From assembly GCA_039815375.1 (NCBI GenBank), contig JBCBZJ010000004.1:1-64000 (forward strand): 64,000 nucleotides of DNA, read 5' to 3'. The stretch comes from Verrucomicrobiota bacterium (GTDB taxonomy: Bacteria; Verrucomicrobiota; Verrucomicrobiia; Opitutales; Coraliomargaritaceae). Positions within the stretch are counted from its first letter, which is position 1; each line of letters begins with the position of its first letter. The notes beneath the pieces were generated by a model. It had not been told where the DNA came from. It saw only the letters and a list, made by a program, of their open reading frames with translations, and made no database searches. Position numbers and translations under genes: made by a program. Below are positions 43,556-62,987 of the stretch, in pieces.

Positions 43556-43575
43556 AGTTCACCGTTACATTAATC

Positions 43576-43634
43576 ATGTTAACAAAGTTAATCTTATGAG
43601 GATTGAGCGCAAGCTCAAATGTTAACAAGGTTAA
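43576..43634. promoter_or_regulatory. Putative operator: two ATGTTAACAARGTTAA repeats flanking a TTGAGC-N4-GCTCAA palindrome
   Basis: Repeats at 43576-43591 and 43619-43634, palindrome at 43603-43618, between divergent genes. Confidence 0.55.
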
Positions 43635-43638
43635 CTTT

Positions 43639-43794: not shown

Positions 43795-43887
43795 ACTAGA
43801 AGAATACCGCCTCCCCCTCAAACGCGTCTAGGTTGTCTTTTCCTGAGAGATGTTAAGCTTGAATTAAATATAACATGCACTTCACTT

Positions 43888-47026: not shown

Positions 47027-47886
47027 ATGCCTAAGATAATTTTCACATCTGGCATCGATCCAGAATATGACGATATACCTGAAGTCAGATGTGAATTCCC
47101 ACAACGTTATTACAAAATGGTCAATGAGGCCATCGGCGACTGGGTGATTTACTATGAACCTAGAAAGAATGGTGGCAGAATGTCATACTATGCTTCGGCC
47201 AAAGTCGCTAAGGTCGAAAAACATCCCAAAAAATCGAATCATTTTTTCATGTTTGTTTCCGATTACCTCGAGTTCGCTCAGGCAGTTCCCTATCGCAGAG
47301 GAACTGAATAAATGGAATCGGCACTTGTCGGTGAAGGCGTTAAGCCCAACTTGGGCGCTCTTCAATGGTCAGTCAGGCGTTTGCTCGAACATGAATTTTT
47401 TGCAATCGTGCGGACAGGATTCGGAAACGAATTGATTATTTCAAAACAAGATACGCAAGTTGCAGAAGAACCAGCCGAATATAATAGACCCATAGTCAAG
47501 AAACTCACGAACCGCCCATTTCGAAATAAAGCATTCAGCAATCAAGTTCACGAAGCATACGACGACACGTGTGCGTTCACTGGCCTAAGGCTTAATAATG
47601 GGGCAGGACTGTTTGAGGTCGAGGCAGCTCACATACGAGCAGTTGAAGACAATGGACCGGACTCACCACGTAATGGCCTCGCACTTGGACAGACCATACA
47701 TTGGTTGTTCGACAAAGGTGTTCTCTCACTTGAAGACGATGGGAAAATACTGAAAGCTGGTCGTCTTGTTCCCGAAAAAGTGAATGCTCTACTCCACACG
47801 GATGGTTACGCACGATTACCAGAACGGGCGCAACTACAGCCTCACAAACAGTTTCTTAGGTTTCATCGTGAGAATCGCTTTCTAGG

Positions 47887-47890
<4 letters not shown>
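47027..47890 (+). pseudogene. HNH restriction endonuclease split by an in-frame TAA (47309-47311)
   Basis: 47027-47311 and 47312-47890 share a frame; CAFTG, EAAHI, NGLAL..TIHWLFDKG HNH motif in the second part. Confidence 0.75.
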
Positions 47891-48315
<425 letters not shown>

Positions 48316-48497
48316 AGGTAATACATTAATTGCTTGTGAATAGATGTGAAGCCTAGCGTCCATCAAAGGAAACTTCATCCGCATCTTCAAAGCAGGCAGC
48401 TACGCCGCCTACTCCTTAAAGAAAGTAAGCGATCCGGCTCAAACAAAACCTGAGTAGCCCATTCCCAGCCTCTGCTGTCTCTGTTTCCTCCTGTTCA

Positions 48498-48532
48498 ACC
48501 ATCCGCGTCGATCTGTGGTCATCCGTGGTTAA
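48498..48532 (+). repeat. 10-bp-period intergenic repeat (related copies at 52711-52745 and in uvrA at 37326)
   Basis: ACCATCCGCGTCGATCTGTGGTCATCCGTGGTTAA versus ACCATCCGTGTCGATTTGTGTTCATTCGTGGTTAA. Confidence 0.7.
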
Positions 48533-48600
48533 AATACAGATTACAGGAATAGACCGCGCGACCAGAGCTCCTACCCGCTCACTCAAACAAGTATCACATC

Positions 48601-49032
48601 ATGAACGCACTCGACCTGACCACTGACTACCCACGCAGCCCGCGCGCAACGCTCGCCGGCTATGTTATTGCCGCACGCACGCTGGACAAATGCCGAGCCG
48701 TACTCGCCGGCACCCAGGGCGAATACCACTTCGACTGTCCGCTGGATAATCTTTTCTTCGACTTCGCAGGCATCCAGGCAGACGACTTCAAGGCCTTTGT
48801 CGCCACCGGAGCGGACGACGCTGCAGTCGCCGAATGGATTCAGGCCAAGGCAGCAGAGAACACACAGGAGGAGATCGTGCAGTGGAACAATGACCTGCGC
48901 TACAAACGCATTTCCGAAATGCCGATCAAACTACAGGTCTTCCTCGAAGGCTATATCCCTGAGAACACCCCAGCCAATAAAGTCGTCTACTACTGGTTTG
49001 ACGTCTACGACATCGAAGAAAAGCGCATCTAA
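48601..49032 (+). CDS. DUF5069 domain protein
   Basis: PRSPRATLAGY..AARTLDKCRA, GEYHFDCPLD. Confidence 0.8.
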   Translation: MNALDLTTDYPRSPRATLAGYVIAARTLDKCRAVLAGTQGEYHFDCPLDNLFFDFAGIQADDFKAFVATGADDAAVAEWIQAKAAENTQEEIVQWNNDLRYKRISEMPIKLQVFLEGYIPENTPANKVVYYWFDVYDIEEKRI

Positions 49033-49226
49033 GTTCGAGGCACTCTCAAACACAAATTAATTCAATTTTGAATTAGTTTAAGAACAGTACTGAGTTCTCG
49101 CGTTCAGAACGTGTAGCTACTTGAGCTACTCCCAAAACCTGAACGACGTAAACGCATTCTTGAAATCAATCCGCGTCCACTTGTCCGGTGTAGCTGAGCA
49201 TAGACGGACCTGTGGATAAATCACCT

Positions 49227-49274
49227 TTGCACTATTTAGTATTGCACTATTTAGTATAATACTATTCAGTGCAA
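49227..49274 (+). promoter_or_regulatory. Tandem 15-bp repeat plus inverted copy, putative operator
   Basis: TTGCACTATTTAGTA twice (49227-49256), then TACTATTCAGTGCAA before the ATPase start. Confidence 0.55.
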
Positions 49275-49280
49275 AAAATC

Positions 49281-50396
49281 ATGGCTAAGCAGCAGACGAA
49301 CCCTTTCCGCTTTAATCAGGTCGTTGAGAAAGAATATTTCTGCAGCCGCCCCGAAAGCGCACTCGTATCCGAACTCGTTCAGTCAGGGCAGAATGTAGCC
49401 CTGATCGGTCCTCGACGCACAGGAAAAACCTCTCTCGCCCTCGAAGTCTGCCGAAAAGCCAAACTCAAGATCGTGCATAGTGATATGATGCGAGTCGAAT
49501 CGTATGCCGATATTATCCGTCGACTGGTCGAAGCCGCCTTACGCGATAGCAAAGCCCCCAAAGTAGAGAACTTTATCAAGGCGCTGGCTCACCTGCGACC
49601 GACCTGGACCATTGACCCGATCGGCGGTGGCACTCAGCTCACCGTCACCCCATCCGCCAAGAGTACGCCGGAAAATGTAATCGACACGCTTCGGTTGATT
49701 GAAAAGCGCTGCATTGCCACGGGCAGTATCCTTTTTATCGATGAATTTCAGGACATCACTGCCCTACCCAAGCACGAAAGCTTTATCGCCCAGATGCGCT
49801 CGCAGATACAGCGCTGGAAAAAGACCGCCATCCTCTTTGCAGGCAGCGATCGGGAGAAGATGAAGGCCCTCTTCACCGATCCAGCCAGCCCCTTCTACCA
49901 ATCAGCCACCGTTCTGATGATTGAGCAGCTGGAAGAAAAGACCTTCAAGCGCTACATCCACCGCCGTTTTGAACAAAGCGGCAAAACCATTGAGCCCGAA
50001 TGCATTGAGCAAGCACTCGCACTGACCGGGCACCACCCAAACTCTGCTCAAAAACTACTGCACTTCATCTGGTCGAAAACTCCGGAAAAAGGGCATGCCG
50101 ATGTCACGATTCTCGAATCAGCCCTCAGCCTAACCATGCGCGTGGAGCAGGACGAATTCGAACGCACCCTCGATAACCTGACCTTCATGCAAGGTCGCGC
50201 CCTGAAGGCACTCGCACAGCTCGGCGGTAAAAATACAACCAGTGGCGACTTCCTCGAAGCCGCCAACATCCGCAACCCGACCTCCTCGACCAAAGCACTC
50301 ATGCGTTGCGTGCAACTCAAGATCCTCCTGAGAGACGGTTCCGCATATCGCTTCGCCAACCCCTTCTTCAAGGCCTGGCTACAACGACAGCCTTAG
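49281..50396 (+). CDS. AAA/STAND-like ATPase with C-terminal winged helix
   Basis: [30 protein letters not shown]. Confidence 0.8.
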
Positions 50397-51228: not shown

Positions 51229-52710
51229 ATGCCGCATCATAATTTGTTCCTGTTTGTCATTCTCTTTTTTGGAATCATCGGCTCCATTATCGCGCAGTTA
51301 CCTGAAGCGCTGCCGGATAAAGCTCCCCAACAGGCCAAAATCGTTCTGGAACAAACCCATGGCCCCTACCTCGGCTTCGGTATCGGCATCCATCCCGGAG
51401 ACGTCATTTACGAAACTGCTTTCGAAGAGCTGGACCTTGAGTTCGTGCGCCTTGAGTTTGGCCCACTTTGGTATGACCTCGATGAGCTAATCCCTGCGGA
51501 TGCGAGTCTTGATGAACTCTATAGTTTCATCGCGGCCAACTACAATGGTGACGCTTATAACCGCCTCGAAGGAGCCCAATACACCTATCGCTTTTTAAAC
51601 GATCGCGATATCAAGATAGTCCTCATTCATTTCGAGCTCCCCTACCATTGGCGCAGGGACAAGGCAACCGGCCTGATCGAGCCTCAATACATCGACGACC
51701 TCGCCCGCTTTTACACCGCGCACCTTCGCTTTCTCAGAGACAACGGCGTCCATATTGATTATATCGAACTGGCCAACGAGCCCGATGGCAATTGGAACGG
51801 CCACCTGCCACCGGAATCCTACGTGAGCCTGCTCAAGCAATGCGACCACCTCTTCGAAGCCAATGACCTCGGGCATGTCCAAATCCTCGGGCCCGGCCTC
51901 GCCTTTCTCAATCTCTACAATCGATTGCCGCCCTACATGGATGCCTTGGCCCTTGGTGCACATGTTCACCTCGACGGATGGTCCACCCACACATGGGACG
52001 AAGTCGAGTTCCCCGAGGCACGCCCGGAATACACCTTTGGAGTCTGGCAACCCTTCCTCAATGGGATCAAAGAATCAGACCCTCTGCGCCGAAAACCGAT
52101 TCTTGTTACAGAGTATGGAAGCGACGTGACCCGCTTTGGAGACCGCATTTACACATCCCCACGCGACCAATTCACCGAAAACCTCACGGATAGCTGGGAC
52201 TACGCTATTCGCGTCGTCGCCAACTCCATCACCCATCTCAACCGCGGTGCCAATGCCCTCATTCTTTACCGCCTCAGCAACGCCCACTGGCAAAAAACGG
52301 GCTGGGGAATCATTCAGCCCGAAACCCCCGAGCGCTACCGCAAAAAACCCATCTACCAAGCGATCTACAAACTACTCAGCGACCTCCCACTCGGCGCCCA
52401 AATCCTCCAACCGAATTGGTATACGCATGACGATCCCATCCTCCTCGCAGTCTTTCACGATGAAGCAAGCCAACAGCTGTCCCTCATCGCCATTAACTGG
52501 ACGGACACAGACCAGAGCCAAACCATTCAACTTCCCGGCGCTTATAGAGCTGTAGAGAATCGACAGCTCGATGCCGAAGGCTTCATTACAGATGAGGCTA
52601 ATATTTCTCTGGACGACGATCAACTGACTCTAAACCTCCCGGCAAATTCAATGTGCCGTATCGAACTGGAAACCAATCAAACCAAACCGAGTGACTCGCC
52701 CGACTCATAA
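51229..52710 (+). CDS. Secreted clan-A glycoside hydrolase (GH30/GH39-like)
   Basis: Signal peptide, ANEPD acid/base, VTEYG nucleophile, beta-rich C-terminus. Confidence 0.7.
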   Translation: MPHHNLFLFVILFFGIIGSIIAQLPEALPDKAPQQAKIVLEQTHGPYLGFGIGIHPGDVIYETAFEELDLEFVRLEFGPLWYDLDELIPADASLDELYSFIAANYNGDAYNRLEGAQYTYRFLNDRDIKIVLIHFELPYHWRRDKATGLIEPQYIDDLARFYTAHLRFLRDNGVHIDYIELANEPDGNWNGHLPPESYVSLLKQCDHLFEANDLGHVQILGPGLAFLNLYNRLPPYMDALALGAHVHLDGWSTHTWDEVEFPEARPEYTFGVWQPFLNGIKESDPLRRKPILVTEYGSDVTRFGDRIYTSPRDQFTENLTDSWDYAIRVVANSITHLNRGANALILYRLSNAHWQKTGWGIIQPETPERYRKKPIYQAIYKLLSDLPLGAQILQPNWYTHDDPILLAVFHDEASQQLSLIAINWTDTDQSQTIQLPGAYRAVENRQLDAEGFITDEANISLDDDQLTLNLPANSMCRIELETNQTKPSDSPDS

Positions 52711-52852
52711 ACCATCCGTGTCGATTTGTGTTCATTCGTGGTTAAGAAATTAAACCACAGAGCAGGTAGAAATCAGAGGAGGAGTTTCTTTATAAAATCC
52801 TCCACGAAACCTGGGAAGACGATGCCTAAGGCAACGACGGAAAACAATTTGT

Positions 52853-53662
52853 TCAATTTGCTGCGCAGGACTTCCGGCGAAAGCAGTAAAACATAAGCGT
52901 GGCCAAGCCAAGACATAATGCCGACGAACCCGGCTCAGGCACAGAGGTTGCGATCAGCTGGACATCATCGAAATCAACCTCCAGATCCGGAAACCCCAGT
53001 GCTGCGTCATCAGAGGGAATCAAATTGGAATTGACCAGACGGATACCGAGGGACTCGCCCAGACGCTCGTGAGTCGCCCCGATTGTTATACTTAAGGTTA
53101 AGCGAACAAATTCGCCTTCAATCAGCAGACCGGCCTGCGCGTTATTATCCTGGGCAATAATGTTACTTTCATCACCAGCCACAGTTTCATCCCCTGCAAG
53201 TAACTCGATACGATACTCAGGAAAACCCTCCAGATTGAAAAAATCATTATTCACTGCTGTTCCCGAATCAATATCGCCGACTTCTACGCTCAGATCGTAA
53301 CGGGTGTTGGCCTGCAAGTTATCCACCAAAGTTTGCTCAAAACCATAAGCCCCTGCTCCTCGTTGCGTGCTGTTGAACAGGATAGCCACACGCGAACCTT
53401 CAGGAGCAGTTTCGTTGAAAAATTCCGTGCCGTTTGGAGTCAAGGTCCCGGTAAAGACACCTCCATCCGGAGTAATTCCGTTTGGGTCATAAATATCCCA
53501 GCCTGCGGGTGTGCCAAATGTGAATTCATTAAAAACCGACTGGCCGGAGACATCCTCAAAACCTGCATTGGTAATCGCAAGATTGACCGAACCATTTGCA
53601 ACCGGACTTAACAAACCGCAAAGAAGACTGGTTTTTACAAAAGAGATATGAGCCTGAGACAT
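52853..53662 (-). CDS. PEP-CTERM sorting domain protein
   Basis: C-terminal VPEPGSSALCLGL..FRRK. Confidence 0.85.
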   Translation of the reverse strand: MSQAHISFVKTSLLCGLLSPVANGSVNLAITNAGFEDVSGQSVFNEFTFGTPAGWDIYDPNGITPDGGVFTGTLTPNGTEFFNETAPEGSRVAILFNSTQRGAGAYGFEQTLVDNLQANTRYDLSVEVGDIDSGTAVNNDFFNLEGFPEYRIELLAGDETVAGDESNIIAQDNNAQAGLLIEGEFVRLTLSITIGATHERLGESLGIRLVNSNLIPSDDAALGFPDLEVDFDDVQLIATSVPEPGSSALCLGLATLMFYCFRRKSCAAN

Positions 53663-53887
53663 GATACTTATGAAGATCGAAATAATTAATTTCGGCAATC
53701 CATTAACGGACCAAGAAACTGGATGAATGTGTATACAATTACAGCCAGTTATCACTAAATCTTTGCGAGGGGTATGCATACAAAAAGAAATCAAAATATA
53801 ACGATACGTTAATATATTTCCTAGCTCACCTTACCAGTTGACAACAGCGCCTTGCAGCATGATTACGGCAACAACTACTAATAAAAC

Positions 53888-54016
53888 ATGCTACTATTAA
53901 ATCGCAGAACCATGCAGCCCAAAGCGGATTTTCTTAATGAATATCCGAAGGGGGATACATGCCCTCATGGCATTGGCATGTCCGGTTCTGAAAAGGTAGC
54001 GCTTATCTCAATATAG
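53888..54016 (+). CDS. Putative leader peptide 1 (42 aa)
   Basis: MLLLNRRTMQPK...VALISI*, after a TTGACA at 53838 and before a terminator. Confidence 0.35.
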   Translation: MLLLNRRTMQPKADFLNEYPKGDTCPHGIGMSGSEKVALISI

Positions 54017-54056
54017 TATTTATAGACGAGTTAACTAGAGGCACATTAACCCTTTC

Positions 54057-54096
54057 AAAAGGCCCGGACTGCAGATTGCAGCCGGGCCTTTTGTTT
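54057..54096 (+). terminator. Rho-independent terminator/attenuator 1
   Basis: AAAAGGCCCGG...CCGGGCCTTTTGTTT. Confidence 0.75.
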
Positions 54097-54261
54097 GCCC
54101 GAATCAAGACATTTTCCGTCTTCAAACCTGAAGATTGATCGCGTCAGGGCGGAGCTTTATTAGATTACATAAGTTATTTATTATAAATATTTTATGTAAT
54201 TTAATTGTTGACTCTTTATAAAATTCCATCCAAGTTCGGTGGCATAACTTTTTTCAAACAC

Positions 54262-54453
54262 ATGCATCTTCACATACATATTCAAATGCCCTGCGGCAGT
54301 TATCTTTGGTCACCCATTTCCCCAAACGGGTCCGATGATCTGTTAGCGCAGAGATTTGAGAATCCCATGGATTCAACACAAGCGAGGGCTTGTAGAGAGC
54401 AGGCATTTCAACCGCGTATTGCGGCCGAATGTTTAGAGAACACTAAACGATGA
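54262..54453 (+). CDS. Putative leader peptide 2 (63 aa, His-rich start)
   Basis: MHLHIHIQ...; TTGACT at 54208 upstream; stop about 20 nt before terminator 2. Confidence 0.4.
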   Translation: MHLHIHIQMPCGSYLWSPISPNGSDDLLAQRFENPMDSTQARACREQAFQPRIAAECLENTKR

Positions 54454-54473
54454 AATACCTGAAAGACTTTCTT

Positions 54474-54510
54474 AAAGCCCAAGCCGCAGACACCGCGCTT
54501 GGGCTTTTTT
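54474..54510 (+). terminator. Rho-independent terminator/attenuator 2, upstream of the tRNA array
   Basis: AAAGCCCAAGC...GCTTGGGCTTTTTT. Confidence 0.75.
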
Positions 54511-54653
54511 GTTTCCACCAACTACAGTTTACCGGTCTCCCTTCCACCACAGCGAAGGGTCAAACGTCACGTAAATGGCGTCCAAACCACGACTCAGAAT
54601 TTGATCGTGAGAGGGGCGAAACAGCCGTCCTTGGTGGAAACAATTAACTTTAT

Positions 54654-54730
54654 GGTAGTTATCGCTTAATGGCTAAAGCACCTGACTGTGACTCAGGGGA
54701 TCTAGAGTTCGATTCTCAGTAACTACCCCA
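54654..54730 (+). tRNA. tRNA-His(GTG)
   Basis: G-1, GTAGTTA/TAACTAC acceptor, CCTGA-ctGTGac-TCAGG, C73, CCA. Confidence 0.9.
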
Positions 54731-54740
54731 ACCTTTCTAA

Positions 54741-54815
54741 GCCTCTGTCTTCCAACAGATAGGATAGCCGATTGTCTACCGGCAGATGTGGGTGCGATTC
54801 CCATCAGAGGCGCCA
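54741..54815 (+). tRNA. tRNA-Asp(GTC)
   Basis: GCCTCTG/CAGAGGC, ttGTCta loop, G73, CCA. Confidence 0.85.
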
Positions 54816-54823
54816 TTTTTTAT

Positions 54824-54899
54824 TCGGTGGTAGTTCAATAGGTAGAACGTGGCCCTGTTAAGGCCAATGTTGCAGGATCGTAGCCTGCCCACCGAGCCA
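54824..54899 (+). tRNA. tRNA-Asn(GTT)
   Basis: TCGGTGG/CCACCGA, TGGCC-ctGTTaa-GGCCA, G73, CCA. Confidence 0.9.
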
Positions 54900-54905
54900 G
54901 TTTAC

Positions 54906-54981
54906 GGGAGTGTAGTGTAGAGAGTCTGCACGTCTGGTTGAAGACCAGAAAGTCATGGTGCGATTCCATGCGCTTCCGCCA
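54906..54981 (+). tRNA. tRNA-Phe(GAA), atypical G73
   Basis: GGGAGTG/CGCTTCC, TCTGG-ttGAAga-CCAGA, CCA. Confidence 0.8.
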
Positions 54982-54983
54982 AC

Positions 54984-55072
54984 GGACAGGTAGAGCCGTA
55001 ATTGACAGCGGCGCCGGATTGTAAACCCGGAGCATCCATGCCTTGCAGGTTTGAGCCCTGCCCTGTCCACCA
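54984..55072 (+). tRNA. tRNA-Tyr(GTA)
   Basis: GGACAGG/CCTGTCC, ttGTAaa loop, long variable arm, A73, CCA. Confidence 0.85.
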
Positions 55073-55082
55073 AATTTAACAA

Positions 55083-55207
55083 CGTGGAGTGGCCAAATTA
55101 GCAAGGCTCCGGTCTTGGAGACCGGGAAACTGCAGGTGGTCCGGTTCCCTTCGTGCCCGGTCATGTCGTCACTTCGTTCCTCGGAACGAGTCCTGTCTCC
55201 GCGACCA
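55083..55207 (+). tRNA. tRNA-Pro(TGG) with a 48-nt insertion in the T-loop
   Basis: CGTGGAG/CTCCGCG-A-CCA, CCGGT-ctTGGag-ACCGG, T-stem GCAGG/CCTGT separated by extra sequence 55139-55186. Confidence 0.75.
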
Positions 55208-55213
55208 TTTTAT

Positions 55214-55290
55214 GACCAAGTAGCCCAATCGGTAGAGGCAGCTGCCTCAGAAGCAGTTCAGTGGGGGTTCGAATCCTCTCTTGGTTACCA
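55214..55290 (+). tRNA. tRNA-Leu(CAG), short variable loop
   Basis: GACCAAG/CTTGGTT, GCTGC-ctCAGaa-GCAGT, A73, CCA. Confidence 0.85.
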
Positions 55291-55296
55291 ATTCAA

Positions 55297-55371
55297 GCCT
55301 CATTAGTTCAACAAGTAGAACAGCCGGCTTTTACCCGGTAGGCCATGGTGCAAGTCCATGATGTGGCACCA
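55297..55371 (+). tRNA. tRNA-Lys(TTT)
   Basis: GCCTCAT/ATGTGGC (one T-T mismatch), GCCGG-ctTTTac-CCGGT, CCA. Confidence 0.85.
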
Positions 55372-55377
55372 ACTTGA

Positions 55378-55454
55378 AGCAGAGTAGCTCAATCAGTCAG
55401 AGCGCGGGTCTCATACGCCCGAGGTTGTGGGTGCGATTCCCATCTCTGCAACCA
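55378..55454 (+). tRNA. tRNA-Met(CAT), 1:72 mismatch (initiator-like)
   Basis: AGCAGAG/CTCTGCA, CGGGT-ctCATac-GCCCG, A73, CCA. Confidence 0.85.
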
Positions 55455-55459
55455 TCTTA

Positions 55460-55531
55460 GCCCGTATCGTCTAGTAGCTAGGATCTCGCGCTTTCCACGC
55501 GATGACGCCGGTGCAAATCCGGCTACGGGTT
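55460..55531 (+). tRNA. tRNA-Glu(TTC), no encoded CCA
   Basis: GCCCGTA/TACGGGT, TCGCG-ctTTCca-CGCGA, Glu-type D arm. Confidence 0.8.
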
Positions 55532-55538
55532 ACTTTCC

Positions 55539-55609
55539 TGCGGGATAGTGTAAGGGCCGCACAGCGAACTTTGACTCCGCTAGAGAAGGTTCGAATCCTT
55601 CTCCCGCAA
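55539..55609 (+). tRNA. tRNA-Gln(TTG), no encoded CCA
   Basis: TGCGGGA/TCCCGCA (U1-A72), ctTTGac loop, GTTCGAATC. Confidence 0.85.
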
Positions 55610-55613
55610 TTTT

Positions 55614-56143
55614 CCGGCGCAGCCGGAGACCGCTAATTATCGCTCATAGACGCTAATGGATTGAGTCGACAGGTAGATGATTCATTCGTTAATCAAATGA
55701 CACATAACACGGAATACATGGCCGATGAAGGATACGCTCTCATCGGCGCCGCATTCGAAGTCCATCGGGAACTCGGCGGTGGCCTGAGCGAAGAAATCTA
55801 CCAAGAAAGCATAGAGATCGAACTCGGCATGCGAAATATCCCATTCAAATCGAAGGACGAACTAAGGGTCTTTTACAAGCAACAGCCCCTGAACAAGCGC
55901 TATATACCGGACCTCACCGTTTCAGGCGAGATCATCACCGAACTCAAAGCCGCTAAGGAGCTCACACACGAACATCACCGGCAACTCATCAATTACATGC
56001 GAGTCACTGAAAAAGCTGTTGGATATCTCATCAACTTCGGCCCCACAGACCAACTCGAGTGGAAGCGTTTCATCCTCAGAGACTTCATTCCTATAGAGCA
56101 TCAGCGCCTATAAGCGAGAATCAGCGGTCGCCAGCTCAGCTGG
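55614..56143 (+). mobile_element. GxxExxY gene cassette bounded by 45-bp imperfect inverted repeats
   Basis: 55614-55658 matches the reverse complement of 56099-56143 at 35/45 positions by manual alignment. Confidence 0.6.
55697..56113 (+). CDS. GxxExxY protein (PD-(D/E)XK-like)
   Basis: IGAAFEVHRELGGGLSEEIYQE, PDL, ELKA, QLINY, GYLINFG. Confidence 0.9.
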   Translation: MTHNTEYMADEGYALIGAAFEVHRELGGGLSEEIYQESIEIELGMRNIPFKSKDELRVFYKQQPLNKRYIPDLTVSGEIITELKAAKELTHEHHRQLINYMRVTEKAVGYLINFGPTDQLEWKRFILRDFIPIEHQRL

Positions 56144-56245
56144 CACATACAGATCACTTTTACAAATTTCCGGTCGGCGGCGCAATGCTCTCAGGCTTTC
56201 TGTCAGGTCATTGCGTTCCGCATCGACGTTCTAGACGGAAACCAT

Positions 56246-56315
56246 GCAAACATAGCCAAATGGTAAGGCATCCTGCATCACAGGAAAGATGCCGGTTCGA
56301 ATCCGGCTGATTGCA
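56246..56315 (+). tRNA. tRNA-like gene with a 5-nt anticodon loop (identity undetermined, possible pseudo-tRNA)
   Basis: TAGCCAAATGGTAAGGC D arm, TCCTG-catca-CAGGA, GCCGG-TTCGAAT-CCGGC. Confidence 0.65.
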
Positions 56316-56318
56316 CCG

Positions 56319-56392
56319 ATACTGTTAGCTCAGATAGGTAGAGCAGTTGACTGAAACTCAACTTGTCCCGGGTTCAATTCCCGGACAGTAAA
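56319..56392 (+). tRNA. tRNA-Phe(GAA)-like, no CCA
   Basis: TAGCTCAG..GGTAGAGC, GTTGA-ctGAAac-TCAAC, CCGGG-TTCAATT-CCCGG; 1:72 unpaired. Confidence 0.7.
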
Positions 56393-56393
56393 A

Positions 56394-56467
56394 TGGATAG
56401 TAGAGCAAATGGTTAGCTCACAGGATTAAGGTTCCTGCGGATGGAGGTTCGAATCCTCCCTACCCGA
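56394..56467 (+). tRNA. tRNA-like gene with AAG anticodon (identity uncertain)
   Basis: GAGC/GCTC D stem, CAGGA-ttAAGgt-TCCTG, GGAGG-TTCGAAT-CCTCC, imperfect acceptor. Confidence 0.6.
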
Positions 56468-56792
56468 CAAAGGGCTTGGCCGCCCTCTAAAGGCCTCCAA
56501 AACCGCCCAAGGAGAGAACGGGCGACTCGTGAAAGCCAGGCACAGCCACCACATCATGCGGGTGGATGCGCCAGCAGTTTCACCACCTGCGAGGATGCGG
56601 ATACCGGATATCTCAAACCTCAGGCCTACGAAGTGAAGAACCGGCCCATCGATCTGCACCGCATGTCGACCGGATCACCGCAAACTCATTTTGAAACGCC
56701 TCAGGCGCGGAATTCCTTAAGCATCATCCCGTGGTCCGAAGCTGTGGCGGATCGTCTCATCCGAACTCTCTGCGGGCACAACTTTCATAAAG

Positions 56793-56860
56793 GGTAGCGC
56801 AGGTCCGTCCCGGACCGCACATAACGCATACCGGACGCCTGAGGGCAGGCCGTCCCTACC
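56793..56860. repeat. Inverted doublet of REP-like GTAG hairpin elements
   Basis: GGTAGCGCAGGTCCGTCCCGGACCGCAC ... CGGACGCCTGAGGGCAGGCCGTCCCTACC; relatives at 41663, 42071 and 39563. Confidence 0.65.
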
Positions 56861-56918
56861 TTTCTCGCAGCGTCTATAGAGGCGACTGCACCAAACATAA
56901 CCCAAACGAATAACAATC

Positions 56919-58034
56919 ATGCTATTCTTCAAATACATCAACATCCCGTATGAGTATGTCGGTTTGAAATTCCGCGATGGCCAATTCGTTGAACTGCTCC
57001 AGTCCGGACGCCAATGGATCTTCGATCGATTCGGCCGCACTGTCGTCAACATTGTATGGCAAGGCGACCCATGGATCGAAATTTCCAAGGCCCAACTGAA
57101 GCAGCTTCGCGAAAACGACGCCGTCAACGGATATGCCGAATTCATCGATATGAAGGACAATCAACGCGCCCTCGTTTGGCTCGATGGTCGTTTCTATGGC
57201 ATCCTCAAACCAGGCCTCTACGGCTACTGGAAATCTCCAGTTAAAGTTAAAATCGAAATCGTGGAACTAGAAGACGTCCGTTTTCAACACGCACAATTCG
57301 ATATCATCACTAAAGACAAAGACGTCGCCGTCCACCTGAACATTCAGGACATCGAAGATGGCAAGGTTGGCGTCCTCTACGTCGATGGTGATTTCGTCGA
57401 GATACTCAAACCAGGTCGTTACGCATTCTGGAAGAACGTGGGCAACGTCCGCATCTATCAGTATGACCTACGTGAAAAAGTCCTCGATGTAACCGGCCAG
57501 GAAATCATGACTGCCGATAAGGTCACTCTACGACTCAATGCAGTCCTAAGCTACCGACTGGATGATGTCCGCAAGGTTGCTGAATCCGCAAAAGACGTCG
57601 AACAGGCGCTCTACCGTGAGATTCAGCTCATCATCCGCGCTGAAGTCGGCGGCCGCACGCTCGACCAGCTACTGGCAGACAAGTCCGCCGTCGCCAACGA
57701 AGCACTCAACGCAATTCGAGGGAAAGCAGCCGGCTATGGAATCGAAGTCAAAGGTCTGGGCATCCGTGATGTCATCCTACCGGGTGACATGAAGGAACTG
57801 CTCAACCAAGTCATCGAGGCCGAGAAAGCGGCCCAGGCCAACAACATCAAGCGTCGCGAAGAAACTGCTGCCATGCGCAGCCAGCTCAACTCTGCGAAAC
57901 TGATCGAGCAAAACCCAACCCTCATGCGTCTGCGTGAACTCGAGTCTGTCGAAAAAATCACTGAAAAGGCTAACCTGCAAATCTTCGTCGGAGATGGACA
58001 GGACCTGACTAAGCGAATCGTCAAACTCATCTAG
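56919..58034 (+). CDS. SPFH/band 7 (slipin family) protein
   Basis: Repeated LxPG N-terminal motifs, GQEIMTADKVTLRLN, RDVILPG, RREETAA, LMRLRELE. Confidence 0.85.
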   Translation: MLFFKYINIPYEYVGLKFRDGQFVELLQSGRQWIFDRFGRTVVNIVWQGDPWIEISKAQLKQLRENDAVNGYAEFIDMKDNQRALVWLDGRFYGILKPGLYGYWKSPVKVKIEIVELEDVRFQHAQFDIITKDKDVAVHLNIQDIEDGKVGVLYVDGDFVEILKPGRYAFWKNVGNVRIYQYDLREKVLDVTGQEIMTADKVTLRLNAVLSYRLDDVRKVAESAKDVEQALYREIQLIIRAEVGGRTLDQLLADKSAVANEALNAIRGKAAGYGIEVKGLGIRDVILPGDMKELLNQVIEAEKAAQANNIKRREETAAMRSQLNSAKLIEQNPTLMRLRELESVEKITEKANLQIFVGDGQDLTKRIVKLI

Positions 58035-58035
58035 C

Positions 58036-58068
58036 AAAGCCCCGGAGCCAGATACTCCGGGGCTTTTT
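58036..58068 (+). terminator. Rho-independent terminator
   Basis: AAAGCCCCGGAG-CCAGATA-CTCCGGGGCTTTTT. Confidence 0.85.
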
Positions 58069-58229
58069 ACTTTCTTTCGCACGATAAGCAGAGGCCACTG
58101 TCCGACAACTCCCTTTGCTATTTGAAAACCGTCATCCTCTTAAGGCATCCGGGAATAAGAGGCCGGAATCAGGCTCGAACTATAGCTCTACATTAGAGAA
58201 ATCCTCAACTGTCACCTTACCGAATCTCC

Positions 58230-59477
58230 ATGATCCGCTACCGAAACGCCTTAGGGTATCTTCTTGGCATACTCTTGCTAAGCCCACTTGCACTCATAAG
58301 CCAAACAGGGCCCGACCTCAGCATCCTCCAGCGCGTCCATGAGCTAAGCCGCTACATGACGCCGCACGAACAGCTGAAAATTGCAAGGTTATCAAAGTCC
58401 GTGGCCGATGCCGAATCGGACGTTCGAACTGGTCTGGCACTCACCAATTCGGAAGGGAGCCGACTGCAAAGAGATAGGGAAACAGAATCGATTAAGGCCA
58501 AAAGACAACGCGGCGAGGAACTCATTAAAGAGGCGGATGCCGCCAAAGCAGCGGCATGGAACGAAGCCGCTATTTTGCTGATCCAAGTCGACGAACGCCT
58601 TAAAAAGCAGAGTCGCCTAGAGGCCATGAAATTCGACTTCTCCATCGAACGGACTAATTTTGAAGAGGCCCAAAATACAGCCGTCAGCACAATCCTTCAG
58701 GCTACTAAAGAAGCTGGCTACAACACGATTCTTTACGACAAAAGCTTTGTCACGACAGCGTCCGGCACTCATCCGGTAAGCCCTGAACTTCGTAAATCGA
58801 CCTATACCTCGCTGCTCTATGTCGAAGGAGATATCCCGGTCATTCACCAACCCGAATCATTAGGGTTGAGCGATGCTCCTGAAAATCGTCTGTTCCATTT
58901 CAAACACGCAGACAAGATCTACAATTCAAAGAGCGCCCTGCTCGCAATCGAAATCATTCCCTATGGCAATGCCGGCGAAGGTATTCTTCTCGCTAGAGCG
59001 CTCGACCTGAAATCGCTCCGCGTCATCAAACATAGCTTTAAGCACATTACTGGGCTAGATACTTTGCTTGAGCAGAGCACTAGTACTCTAGACGGCAGCA
59101 ACAATATCCTGACGATTCCTGAGTTTGTAAAAATCTTTGACAGCGATCAGTGGATCAACCGATTCGCCTCATTGCCGAAACCTTACCAATTTGAAATTAC
59201 AACCGAGGGCACTACCCCTACCGTTGAAGATATTCTGGCAAAGAATGCCCTCGCTCATTCGCTTTTGGAAAGGTCCACAATTATTTTAATCGATTCCAGC
59301 TTTGTTAATCGAGCCTACGGAGCCACCGAAAAGACTGTTGCTGATCTGGCCAGTGCCTCCTTTACCTTAAAAGGCGGTATGGGGATGTATGAAATAGTCG
59401 CTCAGGCCCGAAACAATCCCCGTATGATCGAGATTGGCACCATTACACTTGAAGGAAATAAAAACGACCAAAGTTGA
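58230..59477 (+). CDS. Hypothetical exported protein
   Basis: 415 aa, signal peptide, N-terminal coiled coil. Confidence 0.6.
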   Translation: MIRYRNALGYLLGILLLSPLALISQTGPDLSILQRVHELSRYMTPHEQLKIARLSKSVADAESDVRTGLALTNSEGSRLQRDRETESIKAKRQRGEELIKEADAAKAAAWNEAAILLIQVDERLKKQSRLEAMKFDFSIERTNFEEAQNTAVSTILQATKEAGYNTILYDKSFVTTASGTHPVSPELRKSTYTSLLYVEGDIPVIHQPESLGLSDAPENRLFHFKHADKIYNSKSALLAIEIIPYGNAGEGILLARALDLKSLRVIKHSFKHITGLDTLLEQSTSTLDGSNNILTIPEFVKIFDSDQWINRFASLPKPYQFEITTEGTTPTVEDILAKNALAHSLLERSTIILIDSSFVNRAYGATEKTVADLASASFTLKGGMGMYEIVAQARNNPRMIEIGTITLEGNKNDQS

Positions 59478-59541
59478 TTCGATCAGGATTACAGTCAGCG
59501 CGGTCTGACGTAAGCGGATCCTTAAACACTTTCATTTCTTG

Positions 59542-59574
59542 AAGCCCCGGAGCATCTCACTCCGGGGCTTTTTT
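59542..59574 (+). terminator. Rho-independent terminator/attenuator upstream of the RtcB operon
   Basis: AAGCCCCGGAG-CATCTCA-CTCCGGGGCTTTTTT, same stem as 58036. Confidence 0.8.
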
Positions 59575-59625
59575 ATTTTCCAACACACACACAAATCAAA
59601 TCAACCGCCTTTAGAGGCAACCACT

Positions 59626-60612
59626 ATGAACGAACAAGAAATCCAATTCATTTGCGGCTGCCTATCGGAAGGCCGCACCAAATACTATACCTTCAAAGAC
59701 CACTACGTCTTTCAAATCCTCTCCTGGAAGCTCGGAAGCGGCAGCATCAAGGTGCGCGAGATTAAGACGCATCCGACTTTTGCCCGCTATGCCAACCGGC
59801 CCGCCTTCAGGGAATTCCTGCAACGTTTGCCAAATGGCATCATCGATCAGGAAAGCCTGCAAAGCTACTGGCCAACACACGATTCAATCCAAGCCTTCCG
59901 GCTTACACTGGATCGCTGGGGTGATTTTGATTCCGGCAATGATGACTGGAACCAAACCTCGCGCCGCGGCTACAATCTGGTGCTTCAACTCAACTTCCCT
60001 ATCGCCAACAGCCGTGAATATCGGGAACTCGACGAAGAAGACGATAACCCGTTCTACTTCGGTTCCAAATGCCATCCATCCCGTATTGGAGAAATCACGA
60101 CCATGTCCTGGGCCCGACTCGACATCAACCTCGATGAAGGCACCGCTCTCATTGAAGAGATTCAGACCGACTGGCTACGTGACGCCCGCGAAGAGCGTGA
60201 ACGAATCGAACGTCGTCTCAAAGACCAGAAGCTTTCAATCAACGACACCTGGAGTGGCATCAAAGTATGGAAAATTCTCCGCTACTTCGACCGACACATC
60301 CAGCCACTGATAAAGCTGTGGGACGAAGCCACTCTGGAAGCTGCCCTCTGGTTCCTTCGTGAAGAGCTCGGCATGGAGCAAGTGTATTACCACACTTGGA
60401 ATACAGGCCTCTGGTTTAAGCGCCTTGAGCCTAACTTTGCTCCACCCCGCTCGCTCTACACCAAGCTACCACAGCGCTTCGGCTTCGACTGCGTCGAGCA
60501 GGGCCCGGAGTTCATCCTCGAACAACCGGAAAACCGCCGACGCCTCAAAAGTAAACGCAACAAACATGAATCGCCAAAATGGTGGTTCATGAATTTAAAA
60601 CAAACCGCATAA
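59626..60612 (+). CDS. Hypothetical protein co-operonic with rtcB
   Basis: 328 aa from MNEQEIQF; QTSRRGYNLVLQLNF, IEEIQTDW, PPRSLYTKLPQRFGF; 9 bp before rtcB. Confidence 0.7.
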   Translation: MNEQEIQFICGCLSEGRTKYYTFKDHYVFQILSWKLGSGSIKVREIKTHPTFARYANRPAFREFLQRLPNGIIDQESLQSYWPTHDSIQAFRLTLDRWGDFDSGNDDWNQTSRRGYNLVLQLNFPIANSREYRELDEEDDNPFYFGSKCHPSRIGEITTMSWARLDINLDEGTALIEEIQTDWLRDAREERERIERRLKDQKLSINDTWSGIKVWKILRYFDRHIQPLIKLWDEATLEAALWFLREELGMEQVYYHTWNTGLWFKRLEPNFAPPRSLYTKLPQRFGFDCVEQGPEFILEQPENRRRLKSKRNKHESPKWWFMNLKQTA

Positions 60613-60621
60613 GGAAATACA

Positions 60622-62019
60622 ATGAACGCAGAAGACCTACGTCGTTGGGGTATCCCTCCAGGAGATGCCATGCGACTCACATTCCAAATCATCAAACGGC
60701 TATTTAATGAATCGATTCCAGCCGAGACTGTTCGCTCGCAGCTACTCGCAGTGATTCATCAACCATCCGCGCACCTCAACGATTCGCATTGGAGTGAACT
60801 CGCTCAGATGCTTGATGAGATCACTATCTTCGAGCCACGTGCCGAGCCAGCACCTTACCATCAATGGGGTAAGGATCTTGATGCAAACGCCATCGAACAA
60901 ATGAGGAATGCCTGCCAACTGCCCATCGCAGTGGCTGGAGCACTCATGCCTGATGCTCACCTAGGATACGGACTACCAATCGGAGGCGTCCTCGCAACAA
61001 AAGGCGCAGTCATCCCATACGCAGTCGGTGTCGACATCGCCTGTCGTATGAAGCTGACCGTGCTCGACCTGCCGCTCAAGCACTTCGAGAAACGCACCAA
61101 GATCGACCGCTTGAAAAAAGCGATCGAAGCTGAAACGCGTTTCGGAACCGGTGCCCGTTTCCAGAAAGATGCCATCCGCAACCACAAAGTTATGGATGCC
61201 GACTGGTCGATCACCAAGGTGACGGCCGCAGCTAAGGACAAAGCTTGGACACAACTCGGAACTTCGGGAAGCGGCAACCACTTCGTCGAGTTCGGTATCT
61301 TCGAAATCGAGACAGATGAACTAGGGCTGGGACCTGGCCAGTACATCGCCCTCCTCTCCCATAGCGGAAGCCGAGGCGCAGGTGCAGCCGTTGCCGGGCA
61401 CTACTCGAAGCTCGCCCGCGAAGCTCATCCAGAGCTACCGGACAAGCTGAAGCATCTGGCATGGCTCGAAATGAATAAGGAGTCCGGTCAAGCATACTGG
61501 GCAGCGATGAACCTCATGGGCGATTACGCGGCAGCCAACCATAGCTGTATCCATAAACATATCGCACGTCACCTCGGAGCCGAAGTCCTCCTCGATGTTG
61601 AGAACCACCATAACTTCGCGTGGAAGGAAGAGCACCTCGGCGACGAGCTCATCGTTCATCGCAAAGGGGCAACACCAGCGGGTAAAGGCATAATGGGAAT
61701 CATCCCTGGATCGATGGCTAGCCCAGCCTACCTCGTCCGAGGAAAAGGCAAGGCAGAGTCCCTCAACTCCGCATCTCACGGAGCTGGACGTGTCATGTCC
61801 CGCCGAAAGGCAGCTGAACACCTTCGCTGGGAAGATGCGAACAAGCTCCTTAAAGCACAGCAAGTTGAGCTCATCTCGGCTGGCCTCGATGAAGTCCCGG
61901 CCGTCTACAAAGATATCGAAACCGTGATGGACGCCCAAAGCGACCTCGTCGAAAAACTCGGCCGCTTTCATCCACGACTCGTCAAGATGGCACCTCCGGG
62001 AGAACGTCCTGAAGATTAA
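60622..62019 (+). CDS. rtcB: RtcB family RNA 2',3'-cyclic phosphate/5'-OH ligase
   Basis: MPDAHLGYGLPIGG, VGVDIACRM, GSGNHFVE, HSGSRG, HHN, HRKGAT, SHGAGR, DEVP..YK. Confidence 0.95.
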   Translation: MNAEDLRRWGIPPGDAMRLTFQIIKRLFNESIPAETVRSQLLAVIHQPSAHLNDSHWSELAQMLDEITIFEPRAEPAPYHQWGKDLDANAIEQMRNACQLPIAVAGALMPDAHLGYGLPIGGVLATKGAVIPYAVGVDIACRMKLTVLDLPLKHFEKRTKIDRLKKAIEAETRFGTGARFQKDAIRNHKVMDADWSITKVTAAAKDKAWTQLGTSGSGNHFVEFGIFEIETDELGLGPGQYIALLSHSGSRGAGAAVAGHYSKLAREAHPELPDKLKHLAWLEMNKESGQAYWAAMNLMGDYAAANHSCIHKHIARHLGAEVLLDVENHHNFAWKEEHLGDELIVHRKGATPAGKGIMGIIPGSMASPAYLVRGKGKAESLNSASHGAGRVMSRRKAAEHLRWEDANKLLKAQQVELISAGLDEVPAVYKDIETVMDAQSDLVEKLGRFHPRLVKMAPPGERPED

Positions 62020-62021
62020 CG

Positions 62022-62054
62022 AAAAGCGCCCTCAACAATGGGGGCGCTTTTTTT
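62022..62054 (+). terminator. Rho-independent terminator after rtcB
   Basis: AAAAGCGCCCTCA-ACAA-TGGGGGCGCTTTTTTT. Confidence 0.85.
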
Positions 62055-62261
62055 GCCTACACTTAAAAAAGCAAGATTTTCATCCAGAAGCTCATATTCT
62101 ATTTTTTTTAAAATCCGACACCATCTCAACCAAATCGAATATCTCCGCGCCTCCCACAGCACCAAGAAAAAGACTCGCACACGCCAAAAGGCAGAACGGA
62201 TCGAAACCGATTCGATTGGTGTTTATTTGTTTCCATTAGTGAGCAAAATAACTGCCTATAC

Positions 62262-62987
62262 ATGAATCTACAAATCGCCCAATTGCTCTCCGAACTCAAA
62301 ACAAAGGCACGAACATCTGGGTTTGAAATCGAAACTTTTGATCAAATTGAGAAATGGCCCCTCATGGCACTGTCGCGAAATTCCAGCCGACAAGGTGGTC
62401 AAAAAGTATATATATCATCGGGCATCCACGGCGATGAACCGGCGGGGCCACTCGCCTTGCTGGAGCTCCTCGAATCCGACGCCTTACCGCGACAACACGA
62501 CTACTGGATCTGCCCCGTCTTAAATCCCGCTGGGCTCGACGCAGGCACTCGTGAAAATACCGACGGCCTCGATCTCAATCGTGACTATCGCGAACCTCAG
62601 TCTTCCGAAATCCGGGCACATATCTCCTGGGCGAAGCAGCATATTCCCCCGCTCGATCTCGCCCTCCACCTCCACGAAGACTGGGAGGCCAAAGGCTTCT
62701 ACCTCTACGAACTCAACTTCAGTGGACAACCCGGCCACGCCAATGCAATCCTTGAAGCCGCCGCCAAGCACCTGCCCATCGACACCACAAACGAAATCGA
62801 CGGCAGTCCCGCAAGTGGCGGCATCATCCGCCCTCAGACTTTACCCGAACTCGAAGAAGGCTATCCTGAAGCCATCTACTTCCAGCAACAATTCGGCGGC
62901 CTCAACTACACCCTCGAAACACCCTCCGGCCTCCCACTCAAACAACGCATCGCAGCCCACAAAGACGCCATCCTCACCGTGCTCTGA
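62262..62987 (+). CDS. M14 family metallocarboxypeptidase
   Basis: GIHGDE, NPAG, DLNRD, LHED, TLETP. Confidence 0.85.
   Translation: MNLQIAQLLSELKTKARTSGFEIETFDQIEKWPLMALSRNSSRQGGQKVYISSGIHGDEPAGPLALLELLESDALPRQHDYWICPVLNPAGLDAGTRENTDGLDLNRDYREPQSSEIRAHISWAKQHIPPLDLALHLHEDWEAKGFYLYELNFSGQPGHANAILEAAAKHLPIDTTNEIDGSPASGGIIRPQTLPELEEGYPEAIYFQQQFGGLNYTLETPSGLPLKQRIAAHKDAILTVL

Follow-up and report, generated by a model that had tools for sequence, protein, structure and literature searches.

The window analysed here is a stretch of 64,000 nucleotides (nt) from a Verrucomicrobiota bacterium of the family Coraliomargaritaceae (assembly GCA_039815375.1, contig JBCBZJ010000004.1; contig C40 of a 66-contig, 3.56-Mb genome, code G000), and the nearest relatives of its proteins are found in the Opitutales, Verrucomicrobiota. 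Near its end it carries a module of tRNA and RNA-repair genes (Table 1). On the + strand, two small conserved open reading frames (ORFs), each with a strong terminator, are followed by a 133-nt RNA, a dense tRNA array, a slipin gene and a further terminator; then come an inserted gene for a protein of 415 amino acids (aa), a hypothetical gene and, after a gap of 10 nt, rtcB. The module is compared below with related loci, chiefly an Opitutaceae locus (L004), a Cerasicoccus frondis locus (L005), two other Opitutales loci (L096 and L097) and two loci from Bacteroidota (L030 and L043).

A preliminary description of this DNA had reported an all-plus-strand module with two leader-ORF/terminator units, further structured non-coding RNA, an SPFH/slipin gene, a hypothetical gene tightly linked to rtcB, and no phage structural genes or integrase. 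This anatomy held up: the ORFs and hairpins were located and folded, a covarying element was found between the second terminator and the first tRNA, the slipin and RtcB models of Pfam were matched, and the ORFs scanned from 36 to 64 kb of the window gave no hit to any integrase or phage structural family. Missing from that description were the 415-aa gene, its two flanking terminators and a GxxExxY/PDDEXK_3 gene within the array.

Table 1. Features of the module, with their positions in the window and the evidence for each
Feature	Position	Strand	Evidence
Candidate -35 box TTGACA	53838..53843	+	Read in the sequence; kept in L004
Leader ORF1, 42 aa, motif FLNEYPKGDTC	53888..54016	+	ORF conserved in L004
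Intrinsic terminator T1	54057..54097	+	Hairpin -32.9 kcal/mol, z -5.8
Leader ORF2, 63 aa	54262..54453	+	ORF conserved in L004
Intrinsic terminator T2	54474..54514	+	Hairpin -20.5 kcal/mol, z -3.7
Structured leader RNA R1, 133 nt	54509..54641	+	Covariance model, 136.2 bits; multi-stem
First tRNA cluster, 11 members	54655..55609	+	ARAGORN, Rfam, folding
Asp-like gene, GUC anticodon, CCA end	54741..54812	+	Cloverleaf if A.C closing mismatch accepted
Tyr-like gene, class II, GUA anticodon, encoded CCA	54984..55072	+	Cloverleaf -34.2 kcal/mol, z -2.6
UGG-loop tRNA-like gene: acceptor stem, ~50-nt extra arm, CCA	55083..55207	+	84% conserved in L004
GxxExxY/PDDEXK_3 gene bounded by inverted repeats	55613..56140 (ORF 55661-56113)	+	PF13366 3.8e-37; TIGR04256 1.2e-36
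Three tRNA-likes of band-7-associated (b7a) type (called Asp AUC, Phe GAA, Leu AAG), without encoded CCA	56246..56468	+	ARAGORN
Spacer from last tRNA-like to slipin	56469..56918	+	Partly alignable with L004 and L098
SPFH/Band-7 slipin, 371 aa	56919..58034	+	PF01145 2e-32
Terminator T3, directly 3' of slipin	58036..58076	+	12-pair stem and T tail; hairpin 58036-58066
Inserted 415-aa gene (58230-59477) and T3-like terminator (59541-59571)	58230..59571	+	Hydrophobic N-terminal segment
Unnamed conserved protein, 329 codons from M29 (328 aa on record)	59623..60612	+	GNAT-like fold
RtcB RNA ligase, 465 aa	60622..62019	+	PF01139 8.3e-87
Terminator 3' of rtcB	62022..62054	+	GC-rich hairpin and run of 7 T

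Between 54655 and 56468 ARAGORN called 11 tRNA genes, all of them on the + strand, and the Rfam tRNA model recovered these together with a twelfth at 54741-54812 (42.7 bits, against a gathering score of 29). The first cluster runs His GUG, Asp-like GUC, Asn GUU, Phe GAA, Tyr-like GUA (class II), UGG-loop tRNA-like, Leu CAG, Lys UUU, Met CAU, Glu UUC and Gln UUG. The count of 11 tRNAs and 3 tRNA-like genes given earlier agrees with this, ARAGORN supplying the eleven, and Rfam, folding and conservation in L004 the extra ones. The weakest of the latter is the gene at 55083-55207, which folds no better than shuffled sequences (z -1.05) and has no Rfam match; in the related array of locus L095, ARAGORN calls a 98-nt Pro(UGG) gene.

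These 14 tRNA and tRNA-like genes occupy 1.8 kb, compared with 39 tRNAs that ARAGORN calls in the remaining 3.56 Mb. Ten of the 11 ARAGORN anticodons have a counterpart elsewhere in the genome, AUC being the exception. Array tRNAs are 56 to 68% identical to the best housekeeping tRNA for the same amino acid, and the seven that have a same-anticodon partner in the L004 array are 76 to 97% identical to that partner. Judged by these anticodons and identities, the array tRNAs are supernumerary and foreign to the genome's own set. The first six called by ARAGORN (His to Met) are regular cloverleaves with 7-nt anticodon loops and an encoded CCA, the His gene having G-1 opposite C73, and CCA also ends all three extra tRNA-likes. 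In 13 other arrays of at least five genes the commonest members are Gln, Phe, Lys, Met, Asp, Asn, His and Leu CAG. An explanation of this make-up by the targets of anticodon nucleases was considered and dropped, since so few and related arrays give it no statistical support.

The leader DNA is 76% identical to that of L004 over 772 nt. ORF1 differs from its L004 counterpart by a 9-nt in-frame indel and synonymous changes, and ORF2 by in-frame indels of 9 and 12 nt and a late frame shift, with a stop at most 9 nt from the same place. T1 differs in one loop base and is otherwise identical, and both stem arms of T2 are identical. A motif of ORF1, [FL]x[NQ]Ex[PD]xGxxC, is common to the window, L004, L096 and L097 in the Opitutales and L043 in the Bacteroidota, and its P, G and C are encoded by synonymous codons in different loci. 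From the in-frame indels, the synonymous changes and the cross-phylum motif, we infer that ORF1 and ORF2 are translated. The leader ORFs contain no run of regulatory codons, and the conservation of the peptide motif suggests that a ribosome would be stalled by the nascent chain. When the 3' arm of T1 is omitted, folding of either sequence, window or L004, predicts that GTCCGG (ORF1 codons 31-33) pairs instead with CCGGAC in the 5' arm of T1, and this predicted pairing is the basis of the attenuation model put forward below.

Comparable arrangements recur elsewhere. Units of a small ORF and a terminator also lie 5' of arrays or slipin genes in other Opitutales and Bacteroidota, and a strong + strand terminator was found a few hundred nt 5' of the first tRNA in 13 of the 20 regions examined. 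Tandem terminator pairs occur in four Bacteroidota loci, and the spacing from the ORF1 motif to the terminator recurs across phyla. In the window, the nearest gene upstream of the leader (52853-53794) is on the - strand, so that the + strand leader terminators do not end an upstream gene.

The covariance model of R1, which has 5 training sequences, detected this RNA in 8 of 151 genomes of the order, this genome included. Eight further places were found, one of them apparently identical to locus L007, and within about 600 nt downstream of them lie a tRNA array (6 places) and/or a slipin gene (4 places). Covariation was tested on 13 instances, 12 of them distinct, in an alignment that was fitted to the model and thereby favours the structure: pairing holds in 90.8% of cells, a compensatory change is seen in 11 of 23 pairs among the 12 distinct sequences, and the covariation score of 0.338 exceeds that of shuffles (0.168; none of 500 reaches the observed value) and that of slid partners (at most 0.097). 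R1 has no match in Rfam at E <= 1, and in an Rfam scan of positions 52500-62500 tRNA alone reached its family threshold, with no match to GOLLD or to Y RNA. When the R1 model was run on 81 sources (the window and the 80 cross-phylum loci described below), only its 5 training sources were matched, and R1 thus appears to be confined to the Opitutales at this sensitivity.

No 19-residue window of the slipin exceeds a Kyte-Doolittle mean of 0.69; the protein lacks a hydrophobic segment and is thus a soluble slipin. Its full-length homologs of at least 50% identity bear the NCBI name 'slipin family protein'. RtcB starts 2.6 kb past the slipin stop codon, and lies nearer to it in L004 and L030. RtcB ligases, which join RNA 3'-phosphate and 5'-hydroxyl ends, carry conserved metal-binding and histidine motifs. 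Alignment of the window RtcB to 2epg finds the MPDxHxGYG, GxDIxC, GSGNHF, H(T/S)GSRG and HGAGR motifs, and D111, H113, C141, N219, H220, H247, H329, H330 and H386 are invariant in 30 RtcB sequences. By this alignment the RtcB domain is complete, with all conserved motifs kept. It is preceded by an N-terminal extension of 85 residues (60622-60880; start MNAEDLRRWGIPPGD) that has no Pfam match and is common to the RtcBs encoded downstream of the hypothetical gene in L004, L030, L036, L043, L060 and L074.

For the hypothetical gene, the most likely start is M29 (59623), which agrees with its relatives, and not the ORF start at 59539. A word-indexed search gave 359 relatives of its product, none of them named, and an alignment of 33 sequences has 31 columns that do not vary, including Q110, T111, R113, N117, H150, E177, E178, Q180, D182 and R185. 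The protein has no match in Pfam or NCBIfam (where no GNAT model reaches E <= 10), PADLOC or PHROGs; a search of the PDB sequences with the family profile gave none at E <= 10, and the ESM Atlas holds unnamed clusters only.

Structure was more informative. The AlphaFold (AF2) model has a pLDDT (predicted local distance difference test) of 89.8 and a pTM (predicted template-modelling score) of 0.90. Foldseek matches are weak (best E 0.053), and all are acetyltransferases or Elp3. The VIA search, which is independent of Foldseek, gave 38 chains at Z >= 8; of its best 50 rows (Z 7.8-10.0), 45 bear the title of an acetyl- or acyltransferase, Elp3 and the TacT2 toxin being among these, and the other 5 indicate no other fold. 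The VIA alignments cover 107-153 residues within model residues 88-328, and Z values of 8-10 are only modestly above chance-level best matches. We read the protein as a GNAT-like core with insertions and an N-terminal domain. GNATs bind the pyrophosphate of acetyl-CoA through a Q/R-x-x-G-x-G/A motif; after strand 173-180, the protein differs from this motif and has the invariant residues Q180, D182 and R185.

The question arises as to how widely this assembly occurs. The GNAT-fold protein linked to rtcB was found in 3 of 41 related genomes, this one included, and in none of 8 same-genus genomes, where a 20-kb DNA query also gave no match to the slipin-to-rtcB segment. At the same-genus loci L085-L089 only the downstream M14-like gene was matched, the loci being too short to reach an empty site. 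Among GTDB contigs, taken from one genome per species, 369 of 387 candidate stretches encode a relative of the GNAT-fold protein, and the best 80 were taken as loci, some of which end early at contig ends. RtcB lies on the same strand, at most 1.2 kb from the GNAT-fold gene, in 36 of the 80. A slipin gene is found upstream in 18 loci, 13 of which also have a tRNA, and same-strand tRNAs within 8 kb upstream number at least one in 22 loci and at least five in 8. RtcB, slipin and tRNA are all present in 8 loci.

The preliminary description had made its proposal depend on synteny in relatives, and in L004 the leader, array, slipin, hypothetical gene and rtcB do occur in the window order. Two Cerasicoccus genomes also group the array, slipin and hypothetical gene, together with an HNH gene. 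In L030, gaps of 92 nt between slipin and hypothetical gene and of 30 nt between hypothetical gene and rtcB were found, and combinations of the parts recur in Bacteroidota and Pseudomonadota loci. Together with the lack of a match in the 8 same-genus genomes, the tRNA identities suggest that the island was likely acquired by horizontal transfer. At three loci (L049 9702, L066 9700 and L050 6139-6400) the GNAT-fold gene comes directly after 1-3 tRNA genes, with no slipin or RtcB within 10 kb, which suggests that it may be linked to tRNA in its own right.

Several of these parts have precedents. Long tRNA arrays (L-arrays) were defined in PMC8421152 (Santamaria-Gomez 2021), where Verrucomicrobia and Planctomycetes are among the carrier phyla and their arrays form an anomalous array-length class. 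As described there, L-arrays are dense runs of supernumerary genes with horizontal spread, and this is also what the window array looks like. With 14 genes, it lies under the 20-gene cut-off of Tran et al. (PMC4758250); L-arrays reach 43 genes (PMC8421152), and the window array is shorter than many. In cyanobacteria, rtcB is among the neighbours of tRNA arrays, and HNH genes accompany L-arrays (PMC8421152). In Anabaena, translation inhibitors induce the array and rtcB via direct repeats in promoters (PMC8421152). Besides the trn operon and rtcB, a trcR mutant de-represses the alr0739-alr0740 (slipin) operon, a pair of GNAT genes and an HNH gene (PMC10272220), and these genes are also induced by chloramphenicol (PMC10272220, PMC8421152).

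As far as these sources describe it, the trn/TrcR regulon of Anabaena PCC 7120 resembles the window in its dense supernumerary tRNAs, in its patchy, transfer-like spread and in having rtcB nearby. The partners are also alike (tRNA array, rtcB, slipin and a GNAT-type protein, with an HNH gene in L005). A reading of the window as a stress module agrees with Anabaena in that the array, rtcB, slipin operon and GNAT genes are de-repressed together there. Unlike in Anabaena, where the reported parts are distributed between a megaplasmid and the chromosome, they are physically linked here, and the window unites what Anabaena keeps apart. Moreover, the Anabaena parts are tied together by the repressor TrcR acting on direct repeats, whereas the window has tandem leader-ORF/terminator units and a structured RNA. 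The terms 'attenuat', 'leader' and 'terminator' are absent from the main text of PMC8421152.

A second related system is a predicted one, composed of a Band-7 protein, a tRNA associated with band-7 (b7a-tRNA) and RtcB. Burroughs and Aravind 2016 (Nucleic Acids Research 44:8525) is reportedly the source of this prediction. According to 10.1101/312249, the prediction dates from 2016 and is not validated, and the idea of b7a-tRNA as an RNA cofactor is reported in the same text. As the system is outlined there, the window shares with it an SPFH protein encoded after tRNA-likes that resemble real tRNAs, with RtcB close by; the tRNA-likes at 56246-56468 end 451 nt upstream of slipin. Unlike in the b7a system as reported, there are three tRNA-likes here, downstream of an 11-member tRNA cluster and under a predicted leader gate, and RtcB is paired with the unnamed GNAT-fold protein, no RlaP-type nucleotidyltransferase being matched by Pfam or NCBIfam models.

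The window also bears comparison with the Salmonella rsr-yrlBA-rtcBA system, which in published outline likewise encodes RtcB with a scaffold-type protein and a tRNA-like non-coding RNA. Unlike that system, with its Ro60 and Y RNAs, no Ro/TROVE, RtcA or RtcR family was matched here, and the sole match to Rfam YrlA was far under threshold (22.4 bits vs 69). As for the leader, ribosome-dependent attenuators with leader peptides are known of the trp type and as antibiotic-inducible ones, such as bmrCD. The window shares with them a small ORF, an intrinsic terminator and a predicted alternative pairing that involves the ORF sequence; unlike in these attenuators, what is gated would be a tRNA array and slipin, not a biosynthetic or resistance gene, and there are two units in tandem.

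Among the matches listed in a literature search for 'tRNA array' with attenuation, all were on engineered guide RNA-tRNA arrays or other topics, and a full-text search for slipin or SPFH with RtcB gave no paper on this system. The preliminary description had taken the whole architecture to be undescribed in this lineage. As regards the linked variant with its predicted leader gate this stands; in the sources cited above, long arrays in the lineage, the link of array and rtcB, and the Band-7/tRNA-like/RtcB prediction were already known. What is new, as judged by sequence comparison and the fold model, is the leader peptide motif common to Opitutales and Bacteroidota loci, the covarying leader RNA R1 that Rfam does not match, and the unnamed family with a GNAT-like fold that accompanies RtcB in 36 of 80 loci.

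In our view the module is probably an island of spare tRNAs and RNA-repair genes, with a predicted leader gate, that serves a damaged translation machinery. From the anatomy, conservation, covariation and linkage observed at the locus, we infer the following course of silence, induction and repair. Without stress, ribosomes would traverse ORF1 (and ORF2), the terminators would form and the array would be silent. A ribosome stalled on the conserved leader peptide would let the ORF1 segment pair with the 5' arm of T1 as an antiterminator, and transcription would read through into the array. The canonical-looking, CCA-bearing tRNAs could then decode in place of damaged housekeeping tRNAs or top them up. 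The three CCA-less tRNA-likes and slipin may form an RNA-protein scaffold for repair, as proposed for b7a-tRNA; RtcB would reseal RNA that is cut when the translation machinery is damaged, and the GNAT-fold protein may be an accessory enzyme whose chemistry acts on tRNA.

Several observations weigh against this interpretation, some of them concerning the gate. The ORF1 pattern has 5 matches, all in such leader ORFs, in 2,779,448 six-frame residues; it was derived from these 5 sequences, and so shows specificity and lends no independent support. Other loci carry small ORFs without the motif, and the antiterminator pairing comes from two related sequences only, those of the window and L004. No promoter at the leader passed a consensus scan, and no -10 box was identified there. 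In the TrcR regulon, tandem direct repeats span the -10 box and the transcription start. Their motif TGTWNWWNWNNWGTANYNWA, as printed in PMC8421152 and maybe incomplete, does not occur near the module; a scan of the window gave one match with 1 mismatch, at 26932, where 0.67 are expected by chance. Where Anabaena has a TrcR operator, the module appears to rely on attenuation.

Alternatively, the two hairpins may be ordinary terminators of small genes or small RNAs, and the array may be transcribed from an unregulated downstream promoter of its own, with no attenuation. The result of the promoter scan fits this scenario, as do a TTGAC box upstream of ORF2 that is kept in L004 and the lack of a clear relative of ORF2 outside L004. 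The geometry speaks against it, as a separate promoter after T2 would find no room: T2 runs to 54514, R1 begins at 54509 and the first tRNA begins at 54655. A terminator followed by an array or slipin gene is, moreover, found in many loci, with tandem pairs in four of the Bacteroidota, and the ORF1 motif and its spacing to the terminator recur across phyla. We thus hold this scenario to be quite improbable.

Other adverse observations concern the linkage of the parts. In 30 of the 80 loci the GNAT-fold gene has no RtcB, slipin or tRNA nearby, and in the 10 stand-alone loci examined it lies among unrelated housekeeping genes. The T3 hairpin has the same context 3' of slipin in L004 and L005, and conserved terminators thus part slipin from the hypothetical-rtcB pair, so that the module is not one tight operon. 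One may then ask whether it is inert cargo left by a mobile element or phage in decay, its parts having travelled together without a joint function in this host. The module was not found in the 8 same-genus genomes, it contains insertions (the GxxExxY cassette, a repeat resembling repetitive extragenic palindromic (REP) elements and the 415-aa gene), a defence-like cluster adjoins it, and phage protein families include RtcB (phrog_1075). Against decay stand the intact state of all protein genes, the invariant motifs kept in RtcB, the conservation of the leaders, terminators and R1 across genera, with covariation in R1, and the linkage of the same parts in several phyla. The absence of integrase and phage structural families from the ORFs scanned points the same way. 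A search of 50,697 phage records, 72,556 plasmids and IMG/VR gave no match to the GNAT-fold family, which is thus not phage cargo. We tend to exclude this explanation as very improbable.

The last adverse points come from the tRNAs themselves. The variable arms of Leu CAG and Leu AAG are short, an A.C mismatch closes the anticodon stem in the Asp-like and Tyr-like genes, and the AUC tRNA-like lacks U33; such atypical members may not decode. The tRNA-likes could therefore be mostly non-decoding, serving as decoys for anticodon nucleases or other tRNA-directed toxins, or as RNA cofactors with which slipin presents broken RNA to RtcB, like Y RNA and Ro. The last five ARAGORN members, the slipin-proximal three included, have no encoded CCA, compared with 34 of 39 housekeeping tRNAs that have one. 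Between loci, the tRNA body before slipin is conserved and the anticodon varies (GAA, an 8-nt loop, CAU, AAU, AGA, CUU, UGU, UCU and UAG). Comparable ideas appear in the sources already cited, a tRNA sponge being raised for the Anabaena array in PMC8421152 and the cofactor role of b7a-tRNA in 10.1101/312249. The regular loops and encoded CCA of the first six ARAGORN tRNAs, and the His G-1 opposite C73, are more in keeping with decoding. Furthermore, 23 of 26 array tRNAs of Anabaena were detected and aminoacylated, as reported in PMC8421152. A mostly non-decoding array is, in our estimate, unlikely, and we retain the interpretation as an inducible set of spare tRNAs with an attached repair system. 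As a separate observation, slipin-proximal tRNA-likes in other loci often have A at anticodon position 34 (AUU, AUG, AAU and AGA, with AUC here) or irregular loops, examples being L098 1813-2033, L044 1511-1586 and L039 8106-8181.

The favoured interpretation can be taken further, to a proposal that we advance as a rather speculative one. The leader peptide would act as a nascent-chain sensor of ribosome poisoning that opens the spare-tRNA operon through antitermination, and the GNAT-fold family would be the missing partner enzyme that chemically marks, protects or re-tailors the tRNA repaired by RtcB. Together with slipin and the tRNA mimics, this would make up a full circuit from sensor to repair on one mobile island.

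Very few experiments underlie what is known of inducible spare tRNA sets, and the same is true of RtcB-centred repair; this locus sets all the players side by side. If the leader peptide and terminator work as proposed, they would indicate how cells sense failing ribosomes without a protein regulator. The leader-gated model, if it holds, would explain how emergency tRNAs are switched on in bacteria outside the cyanobacteria, and would name a new accessory enzyme of RNA repair. The 133-nt covarying RNA and the enzyme-like protein with 31 invariant residues, which travels with RtcB in many phyla, are testable handles.

Some minor features of the module remain to be mentioned. The GxxExxY cassette within the array has a counterpart in L004 at 6385-6491, where both repeat arms adjoin each other with no gene between them, as in an empty hairpin site; we presume that it is akin to the hairpin-bounded cassettes of the same family in rRNA intervening sequences. 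In the spacer before slipin, a 118-aa ORF (56441-56797) has no family match and was treated as non-coding spacer. A repeat of roughly 30-45 nt at about 56820-56865 recurs in nearly identical form on many contigs here and in same-genus genomes, and once in L004; by its appearance it is a REP- or MITE-type element (MITE, miniature inverted-repeat transposable element).

The 415-aa gene was rejected as a part of the system, being absent between slipin and the hypothetical gene in L004 and bracketed by a duplicated terminator; it looks like an insertion that duplicated the slipin terminator. Its product, taken to be secreted, has no match in Pfam, NCBIfam, PADLOC or PHROGs, and a Kyte-Doolittle mean of 1.8 at residues 6-25. 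In L005, a small ORF at about 9590-9900, with HNH-type motifs recognised by eye, lies between the slipin terminator and the GNAT-fold gene. After rtcB comes an AstE/AspA-type (M14-like) deacylase gene (62262-62987), and in the SAR324 locus L029 a gene of the same Pfam family (10985-12046) comes after a stand-alone GNAT-fold gene. The M14-like gene is kept in same-genus genomes that lack the module, and its link to the GNAT-fold gene may therefore be due to chance.

Outside the module, ARAGORN called a tRNA with a four-base anticodon (gttt) on the - strand of another contig of the genome (C21:4743). The defence-like cluster upstream of the module (42237-50396) encodes a DUF6036 nucleotidyltransferase, a C-5 cytosine methylase, an HATPase_c_3 protein, an HNH_2 endonuclease, a Vsr endonuclease and an AAA ATPase with weak matches to PADLOC candidate systems. 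Further upstream, at 36020-41608, the window encodes a UvrA-like protein of 1862 aa with several ABC/UvrA domains.

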